This document shows, one piece after another, positions 60,181 to 61,911 of a stretch of 64,000 nt of DNA. The stretch lies in NCBI GenBank assembly GCA_944363575.1, contig CALVUJ010000023.1, positions 107-64,106 on the forward strand, written 5' to 3'. The stretch is from an uncultured Bacilli bacterium (GTDB lineage Bacteria; Bacillota_I; Bacilli_A; RFN20; DUOF01). The position numbers and the translations under genes are program-made. Position 1 is the stretch's first letter, and every line of letters starts with the position of its first letter. The notes under the pieces are model-generated. The model was not told the origin of the DNA. It made no database searches and saw only the letters and a program-made list of their open reading frames with translations.

Positions 60181-61401
60181 ATGTTGAATGTGGAGGCAAT
60201 TAAGGCTTTGTATTCTCCTAATATGGAAACGATGGCGTATTTGGTTAGTAGAAAATATGGTGAGTATAGTGATGGGTTTTTAGATATTTTTAAGACAATA
60301 AATACATTAGGTATGCGTGTTGCTTTGGCTGATTATGGGAAAAATAAAGATGGAGAATCATTAGAATATTGTCAATTTGTTCCTAGAAGTAGCGATAAAA
60401 AGGCTTATATTATTTTGAGTAATCATAGTAGTATAAGTCGACTTCGTTTTAATAGTGCGATAATGCTTTATTGTGCGATTAAAAATCAAAAAAATATTGC
60501 TACATATGCTCCTAATAATGATTCTAAAACAATGCATGCAGCGAAAGTGTTTGCGGCAAATTTTTTAATGCCAGAAAGAGAACTGAAAGATTTTATTTTT
60601 AAAAAAGATGATGATGGCAATTATCTTTATTTAAATGATAAAAAGGAAATTTCTATAGATAACATTAATGAGGTGGCTATTCATTTTGGTGTTCCTTTTA
60701 AAACATGTGCAGCAAGAATTTTAAATGTAACGAATAATATTGATGGTATAAAAAGCATGGAAGACTTAGCGAAGAAAATAATTAATAGGGATCATAAAAT
60801 TGTAGTTAGAGGAGAAACTAGAAAGTTAGAACTTGCGATGTATAAGCAATTGGTTAATAGTTTAAGATATTTGGATGTTAGGAGCACTAAAAGTATTACC
60901 CTTGAAAAAATATTGAGGGAATGTGTTAAAAATGATGCTTTGTTGGAAGGGGTTATCAAGGATCCTAAAAGTGTTAATTTTGTGTTGCATGCTTTTGCGG
61001 ATGGTGGAAAAATAGATGAGAATGGTAATTTACATTGTAAGAATGATAAAGTGATTAATTTAACTGAAAATCAATTAGTGGTATTGGGTAATTATGAACT
61101 TTTAAGAGAAATTGCCTATGAAAAAGCGGCCTACTATACAGATAATGATGATGTAGTTATTGATGAAGCAATGAATAAGGCGGGGTATGGATTATCTAAA
61201 GAAGAGAATAAAAAAATAATAAGAGATGTTGGTGGTAAGTATTTGAAAGGTGAAATAAAGTATGATGAAGCTTGTGCTTTGCTTGAGAAGTTGTGTGGGT
61301 TTAAGAAGTATGAGACAGAAACTTTTATGACTAATTTATTAGGGTTTGATCATTATACAATTAGAAGGTTTCATAAGATTTTGTTTAATTATTCCAAATA
61401 G
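60181..61401 (+). CDS. Degenerate ImmA/IrrE-like domain plus N-terminal part of a Fic domain, ending at an in-frame TAG
   Basis: RLRFNSAIMLYC (HExxH lost), AKVFAANFLMPE, VAIHFGVP; NDALLEG resembles the Fic inhibitory helix; IRRFHKILF Fic helix just before TAG. Confidence 0.75.
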   Translation: MLNVEAIKALYSPNMETMAYLVSRKYGEYSDGFLDIFKTINTLGMRVALADYGKNKDGESLEYCQFVPRSSDKKAYIILSNHSSISRLRFNSAIMLYCAIKNQKNIATYAPNNDSKTMHAAKVFAANFLMPERELKDFIFKKDDDGNYLYLNDKKEISIDNINEVAIHFGVPFKTCAARILNVTNNIDGIKSMEDLAKKIINRDHKIVVRGETRKLELAMYKQLVNSLRYLDVRSTKSITLEKILRECVKNDALLEGVIKDPKSVNFVLHAFADGGKIDENGNLHCKNDKVINLTENQLVVLGNYELLREIAYEKAAYYTDNDDVVIDEAMNKAGYGLSKEENKKIIRDVGGKYLKGEIKYDEACALLEKLCGFKKYETETFMTNLLGFDHYTIRRFHKILFNYSK

Positions 61402-61911
61402 CAAGGGTATATTAAAGGTCAATATAGGAGAATTCCTGTTTCAATAACGGGGGCTAATTTTGAAACGGCAGGTACTAGAGAGATTGAACCGATGATGGAG
61501 AAATTAAATTATGATATTATAGATCTTTTGAAATTAAAGGATGAAATGAGTAATTTTGAATATATTCATCGAGTTAATGCTCTGGTTGCTAGACTATTAG
61601 TGATTCATCCTTTTGAAGATGGGAATGGTAGGGTTAGTAGAGCTCTTACTAATTTCTTGTATAAGAAGAAGCATTTGCCAATTGTGTTTATAAATGCCGA
61701 GAAGCAGAGGAATGTGTATTTAGATGCTTTGTCAGAGATAAATGTTTTGGAGTTAAGGGTTGATGATCCAGGAGTTGATTTAACTGGTTTAGATTTATTG
61801 ATGTGTAAGACTTTGAAAACTTCTTACTCTAATATATATTCAGGGGATAAAATGTTAACTAATCCTGAGAAAGAAATAGAACAGCATCGTTTAAAGAGTA
61901 TAAGAAAATAA
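61402..61911 (+). CDS. Fic catalytic core, in frame with the preceding ORF beyond the TAG (ORF-track start 61492)
   Basis: QGYIKGQYRRIPVSITG flap, then canonical HPFEDGNGRVSR at 61606-61641. Confidence 0.8.
   Translation, partial: QGYIKGQYRRIPVSITGANFETAGTREIEPMMEKLNYDIIDLLKLKDEMSNFEYIHRVNALVARLLVIHPFEDGNGRVSRALTNFLYKKKHLPIVFINAEKQRNVYLDALSEINVLELRVDDPGVDLTGLDLLMCKTLKTSYSNIYSGDKMLTNPEKEIEQHRLKSIRK

Follow-up and report, generated by a model that had tools for sequence, protein, structure and literature searches.

The analyzed window is a stretch of 64,000 nucleotides from an uncultured Bacilli bacterium (assembly GCA_944363575.1, contig CALVUJ010000023.1), and it contains a gene of 576 codons that joins an ImmA/CapP-like domain to a predicted class II Fic module and is split by one in-frame TAG. 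In all likelihood, the T at position 61399, the first base of this TAG, reflects an error of assembly or consensus or else a nonsense allele that is private or confined to a minority, and the gene is otherwise intact, with a glutamate (Glu407) at this site. Nothing is recoded or switched at codon 407. An earlier note on this DNA had proposed a stop-codon switch, in which termination at the TAG would give an antitoxin-like product and read-through or reversion would give the full Fic enzyme. As a fallback, it had named a recent mutation or a sequencing error, and it is this fallback that the evidence favors.

The frame extends from the ATG at 60181 to the TAA at 61909-61911, and the TAG at codon 407 is its sole internal stop. 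The list of open reading frames (ORFs) and the translation both bore out the description of the split: the 406-aa ORF (60181-61401) and the 139-aa ORF share one frame and are separated by the TAG alone, and translation with an X at this codon yields 576 residues, the size that had been given for a read-through product. The Pfam Fic family PF02661 (E 9.8e-13) matched residues 389-493, a range that includes the TAG, which shows that the part after the stop is coding sequence by homology and did not arise as an ORF by chance. Past the TAG, the window has retained every residue that is invariant in an alignment of 8 sequences, including HPFxDGNGRVSRA, in agreement with the former statement that the 30 codons after the stop have no other lesion.

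Next to the sequence of the window itself, public-run data were compared in the form of assembled Logan contigs, not raw reads. Among 14 runs listed for the locus, none was an RNA run; those from chicken gut include X2, X3, and X11-X14. Four runs (X1, X2, X3, and X5) were included, of which three cover position 61399. All three have a G at this position, resulting in GAG (Glu407). In X1, a single contig of 7075 nt with a depth of 10.3 covers positions 59800-62200, and it differs from the window at only 1 of 2401 nt, namely 61399, and has no gaps. X1 may be the sample from which the assembly was built. X2 (depth 4.5) and X3 (depth 3.1) stem from a different study than X1 and, apart from this base, match the window completely or almost completely over the covered parts. 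The site lies outside the coverage of X5. The 406-aa ORF belongs to a 90%-identity protein cluster with one other member, P0016, which has a length of 576 aa, is identical at 575 of 576 positions, and carries E407. The Logan contig that encodes P0016 also has a length of 7075 nt and is probably the X1 contig, so that P0016 is not independent of X1. The earlier note had named a sense codon in the reads as an outcome that would speak against its switch, and as far as contigs can show it, this is what was observed.

The homologues gave the same picture. Among full-length homologues, the 7 closest have 575-579 aa and a protein identity of 58-62%, a distance at which synonymous sites are saturated. 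All 7 are uninterrupted, and the column of codon 407 holds E in five, Q in one, and D in one of them. The family of the organism comprises 11 genomes, and a match was found in 8 of the 10 others; these 8 genomes contain 10 full-length copies, all of them open over 547-577 aa and free of stops. A sense codon in all relatives had also been named as an outcome against the switch, and neither the 7 close homologues nor the 10 related copies contain the stop, while P0016 has Glu. Judged from the contigs, the prevailing allele in the lineage is a sense codon.

The gene family is small, with 9 representatives at E of at most 1e-30 among 1.84 billion. In a wider pattern search of genome contigs 80 loci were kept, all of them distant Fic relatives with 23-45% identity, whereas none of 88 pattern matches in viral contigs and none of 133 pattern matches in metagenome contigs was a relative. 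The protease-intact type of about 450 aa (P0012) was searched for in 299 scored genomes of the phylum, with 2 further genomes unscored; the sole match at E of at most 1e-15 was the genome of the window itself, and this type was not found in the genomes searched.

Several points weigh against an error or a minority allele. X2 and X3 are each represented by one low-depth contig, and in X2 the site is only 17 nt away from the contig end. X1 is only a possible source sample. Contigs drop rare variants and do not give the allele frequency at 61399, and a T allele might well exist in the sample. In addition, it is rare for a k-mer assembler to introduce a base that no read contains, and the T allele is therefore likely to be present in some reads. 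The latter point also speaks for a real and recent loss of function, in which TAG would be the main allele of the clone, a truncated protein of 406 aa would be produced, and Fic activity would be lost. Loss of function is a common fate of toxin-like genes, and a single substitution is sufficient to convert GAG to TAG. The lack of any other difference from the G allele over 2401 nt and the retention of the invariant residues downstream would fit a very recent event. However, G was found in all three other near-identical assemblies, including the possible source sample at a depth of 10.3, and the 90% cluster has just two members, of which the other one is intact, so that it contains no second stop-bearing sequence. 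We regard a fixed loss of function as unlikely. Throughout the genome, 60 single stops have a frame of at least 120 codons on either side, but most of these places seem to be neighboring genes in the same frame, and they are uninformative about the rate of assembly errors. A lone in-frame stop in a metagenome-assembled genome needs confirmation at the level of reads.

The location of the TAG is not in agreement with the proposed switch. The earlier note had placed the stop between an inhibitory helix and a catalytic core, but in the structure model it lies inside a single class II Fic fold and not at a domain boundary. Codon 407 maps to a loop between the helix of residues 393-401 and the flap, in the middle of the Fic fold and about 150 residues past the inhibitory helix. 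The 406-aa product would contain the N-terminal domain, the inhibitory helix, and one half of the Fic core, which would make it unlike the antitoxins known from class I, small and separate proteins that donate a helix. In this sense, the designation of the termination product as antitoxin-like is not supported. The first ATG, GTG, or TTG past the TAG is the codon for Met438, which falls inside a helix (residues 432-455) after the flap. As a restart at Met438 would lack the flap, the 139-aa ORF is the tail of the gene and not a catalytic subunit.

The genetic code of the genome (1.13 Mb in 26 contigs, 28.4% G+C, 90.9% complete) also offered no basis for recoding. Among 574 stop-to-stop frames of at least 250 codons, 382 end with TAA, 124 with TAG, and 68 with TGA. 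TAG is therefore an ordinary stop in this genome, which uses the standard code. No CUA anticodon was found among 39 tRNA genes, although a tRNA gene might be missing from a genome that is 90.9% complete. On the basis of the use of TAG at the ends of 124 of the 574 long frames and the lack of a CUA tRNA, pyrrolysine or another reassignment of TAG was rejected. Phase variation was rejected as well, because the sequence around the site contains neither a repeat tract nor a homopolymer.

A stop-codon switch is thus extremely improbable. The only points in favor of such a switch are that the stop comes after the inhibitory helix and before the catalytic loop, and that it is followed by a C, which is a relatively weak termination context in E. 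coli. Against it stand the absence of TAG from the 7 close homologues, the 10 related copies, and the three other assemblies, its regular use as a stop without a detected suppressor tRNA, the lack of a tract that could drive phase variation, and the position of the break in one globular fold with a restart codon only past the flap. Control of a toxin by a regulated stop codon within a Fic enzyme would have been novel, but the evidence is against it, and the site should not be carried forward as a case of recoding.

The features of the intact protein were analyzed with a model of the Glu407 allele, which was generated with an alignment of 44 sequences (predicted local distance difference test (pLDDT) 85.2, predicted template modeling score (pTM) 0.86). 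The Fic region of the model (residues 231-558) matched CdFic (4x2d) with a Z score of 23.8, a root mean square deviation (rmsd) of 3.0, and 222 of 227 residues aligned, and it also matched FICD (6i7l, Z 23.7) and BT_2513 (3cuc, Z 22.6). In contrast, VbhT and EcFicT, which belong to class I and are devoid of an inhibitory helix, aligned only from residue 277/278 onward, with a Z score of about 15. The profile of the 44 sequences matched FICD with an E value of 1.6e-26 from the inhibitory helix to the C-terminus, and "ndsrlEg" was aligned on "HTVAIEG". In the family profile, Glu256-Gly257 fell on the FICD motif TVAIEG, the Glu of which is the inhibitory Glu234. According to PMC4342408, Glu234 of FICD is the auto-inhibitory Glu of the (S/T)xxxE(G/N) motif and competes with the gamma-phosphate of ATP for Arg374. 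Glu256 is invariant in all 44 relatives, and the following position, a Gly in the window, is G or N in 34 of the 44.

All motifs quoted in the earlier note were found at their positions (Table 1). The active-site motif of Fic/Fido proteins is HxFx(D/E)GN(G/K)RxxR. The AMPylation-competent form, HPFx(D/E)GN(G/K)RxxR, is present as a canonical HPFxDGNGRxxR in HPFEDGNGRVSR. The flap predicted to follow the TAG is present as G413-x-Y415-R416...V420 and was aligned on the flap of FICD. For NDALLEG, the outcome was divided: its assignment to the inhibitory helix is supported by homology, with Glu256 on Glu234 of FICD, but it does not conform to the strict (S/T)xxxE(G/N), having an acidic residue (D/E) in place of S/T. 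Each of the 8 close sequences and of the 10 related copies has the helix and the core within a single frame, and the separate antitoxin typical of class I was not found in any of them. Taken together, alignments and model indicate that the protein is a member of the class II (cis-inhibited) Fic group with a variant inhibitory signature, and Glu256 is the presumed auto-inhibitory residue.

Two further observations concern the Fic module. First, the fold comprises 328 residues, compared to 227 in CdFic, and the difference of about 100 residues is made up of extra helices (323-333, 341-355, 361-372, and 376-387) that are inserted into the core in the region of about 313-392. Second, the catalytic His is replaced by Gln (QPFxDGNKR) in 12 of the 44 relatives, while the equivalent of Glu256 and the first Arg are kept. 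These 12 are the loci L002-L009 (genomes G002-G004 and G007-G010) and the proteins P0020 and P0022-P0024, and they include all same-genus copies. The copies with Gln have neither a protease site nor the Fic His, yet their frames of 547-577 aa have remained open.

The N-terminal domain matched Peptidase_M78 (PF06114) in Pfam with an E value of 1.9e-6 and 28.1 bits, compared to a cut-off of 22. The structure of CapP (7t5t) was matched with a Z score of 15.5, an rmsd of 2.8, and 164 aligned residues, and the profile of the 44 sequences matched IrrE (3dte) with an E value of 5.6e-6. However, the HEXXH zinc motif is absent: the respective columns hold I94-M95-L96-Y97-C98 (60460-60474), a replacement shared by the 8 close sequences. 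The presence of HEXXH follows the size of the proteins. It was found in 23 of 23 relatives of about 450 aa, as AHELCHH, but in none of 21 proteins of 520-580 aa, which include the subfamily of the window. Because HEXXH is replaced by IMLYC, cleavage is not expected, and by its sequence the domain is a pseudo-protease. Within the family, some members have lost the protease site and others the catalytic His of the Fic module.

The fusion gene is preceded by a gene for an XRE-type protein of 92 aa. In six related loci (L004-L009), the fusion gene is immediately preceded by a gene for a homologue of about 100 aa (30-36% identity). Counting the window, the XRE gene is directly upstream in all 7 loci of the genera g1 and g2, whereas the two loci of genus g4 (L002 and L003) have no such gene at this position. 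A complex of the XRE protein with residues 1-230 of the fusion protein was modeled and reached a score of 0.66 (0.71, 0.62, and 0.66 in the individual runs), while the best of three controls had a score of 0.00. In the calibration, 58 of 80 solved complexes and 2 of 110 mismatched pairs had attained this score, counts that are rough in the present case, as own alignments were used. The runs shared at least 55% of the contacts, and the pLDDT of the partner was at least 65. In the modeled complex, residues 75-90 of the XRE protein dock on a beta-sheet formed by residues 46-52, 63-78, and 106-108. The model supports a predicted binding of the XRE protein to the N-terminal domain.

These features would be compatible with the following mechanism. 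The Fic module might be an AMP-transferase that is restrained in cis by Glu256. The dead protease-like domain would no longer cut the XRE protein, but would instead bind its C-terminal tail. This binding could couple the repression of the operon to the control of the enzyme, similar to a toxin-antitoxin or an ImmR/ImmA-type module. The two genes might form an undescribed toxin-antitoxin-like or defense-like module, in which a zinc-less ImmA/CapP domain is fused to a class II Fic enzyme and docks the tail of an XRE repressor. If the repressor were lost or titrated away, the operon would be de-repressed and, at the same time, the enzyme would be freed from its brake at Glu256. We hold this for possible but doubtful. 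Weaker and less probable still would be a variant in which G and T at 61399 occur side by side in the population and represent the on and off states of the enzyme. Three points count against the mechanism. The position four residues upstream of the inhibitory Glu is D in 28, E in 11, F in 3, I in 2, and S or T in none of the 44 sequences (ungapped count), and the strict signature is therefore not present. The score of the complex may reflect its likeness to a solved complex of the ImmR-ImmA or CapH-CapP type, if one exists. Lastly, enzyme activity, toxicity, and XRE binding are predictions for this protein pair.

The two-gene unit is located downstream of gyrB (55340-57268) and gyrA (57281-59812) and upstream of serS (62196-63473). 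Class I Fic toxins are reported to act on gyrase or topoisomerase (PMC13327609, PMC8401265). The placement after gyrB-gyrA would fit a Fic enzyme that acts on gyrase, by analogy with the class I FicT toxins, but it may also be a coincidence. In the same-genus locus L009 (2-1072), the gene pair likewise directly follows gyrA. The serS gene is preceded by a T-box leader (RF00230, 123.5 bits) at 61952-62152 on the plus strand, with a strong promoter-like site at 61923-61950. Elsewhere in the window, the minus strand contains a single ORF of 4019 aa (18598-30657), which is very large for a genome of 1.13 Mb. The features of the unit are compiled in Table 1.

Table 1. Coordinates of the features in and around the two-gene unit
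Feature	Coordinates	Strand	Residues	Basis or remark
Terminator-like hairpin after gyrA	59816..59843	+		12-pair stem, then T run
Promoter-like site before the two-gene unit	59851..59878	+		TTGAAA, 16-nt spacer, TAGAAT, with TG; consensus match only, no evidence of function
XRE-type helix-turn-helix gene, 92 aa	59900..60178	+		Pfam HTH_3, E 7.1e-8; stop 2 nt before the next ATG
576-codon gene, ImmA/CapP-like domain and predicted class II Fic module	60181..61911	+		Interrupted only in the present assembly
ImmA/IrrE/CapP-like domain	60217..60795	+	13-205	Peptidase_M78; HEXXH-less, AIMLYCA instead
Class II Fic fold, complete	60871..61854	+	231-558	Structure matches of the model
Inhibitory helix, ends in NDALLEG (60931-60951)	60892..60951	+	238-256	Helix in the model; FICD alignment
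TAG codon	61399..61401	+	407	T at 61399 is G in other assemblies; P0016 has E407
Flap region	61417..61473	+	413-431	Aligned on FICD segment EAGRFRTTQVLVGHH; G413 and R416 nearly invariant
139-aa ORF	61492..61911	+		From Met438; tail of the 576-codon gene, not a separate gene
Fic active-site motif HPFEDGNGRVSR	61606..61641	+	476-487	Translation, alignments

Both parts of the unit resemble known systems. A fusion of COG2856/ImmA with Fic was not found described in the literature search, which included the accessible portions of PMC2701414 and PMC10440598, but supplementary tables such as NetFlax Dataset S1 might list one, and the pair of domains is already contained in database annotation, as P0012 carries PF06114 and PF02661. 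Searches with PADLOC models yielded weak to moderate matches to RmrA, CapP, SoFic, and PDC-S04. The RmrA models matched residues 70-200 with an E value of 2.1e-6, and their match to the XRE protein was weak (E 0.0018). According to PMC10440598, RosmerTA consists of the toxin RmrT and the antitoxin RmrA, which has helix-turn-helix and ImmA-like protease domains. The unit in the window shares with RosmerTA an ImmA-like domain, a helix-turn-helix, and a toxin-like partner. However, RosmerTA has the protease and the helix-turn-helix in one antitoxin and a separate toxin, an arrangement not present here: the helix-turn-helix is a separate protein of 92 aa and the dead protease-like domain is fused to the putative toxin.

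The similarity to ImmR/ImmA and CapH/CapP extends to the adjacent upstream XRE gene, the Peptidase_M78 match, the CapP fold, and the predicted docking of the C-terminal tail of the XRE protein. In those systems, the COG2856/Peptidase_M78 metalloprotease cuts the XRE repressor, whereas here the domain is HEXXH-less and is fused to an effector enzyme. According to PMC2701414, COG2856 is paired both with Xre and with toxins, and an association of XRE and COG2856 with toxins has been known for a long time, RosmerTA (PMC10440598) being another case.

The class I FicTA systems (VbhT/VbhA, EcFicT/EcFicA, and Fic-1/AntF) have the Fic core in common with the protein described here, and in both cases the inhibitory Glu is provided by a helix. 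In class I, however, this helix resides on a separate small antitoxin, while the protein in the window has helix and core in a single chain, from which the helix is not detached as a module by the TAG. In summary, the gene family is a modestly interesting variant of known parts and a modest candidate for studying the release of Fic enzymes from auto-inhibition. The class II Fic proteins human FICD/HYPE (4U04, 6I7G), C. difficile Fic (4X2C/D/E), and Bacteroides BT_2513 (3CUC), all with an auto-inhibitory helix at the N-terminal side, resemble it in the whole class II fold, and the profile match to FICD extends over inhibitory helix, flap, and HPFxDGNGRxxR loop. In contrast to these proteins, which have tetratricopeptide repeats or nothing at the N-terminus, the protein in the window has an ImmA/CapP-like domain, D/E in place of S/T in the inhibitory signature, about 100 additional residues, and a paired XRE gene.

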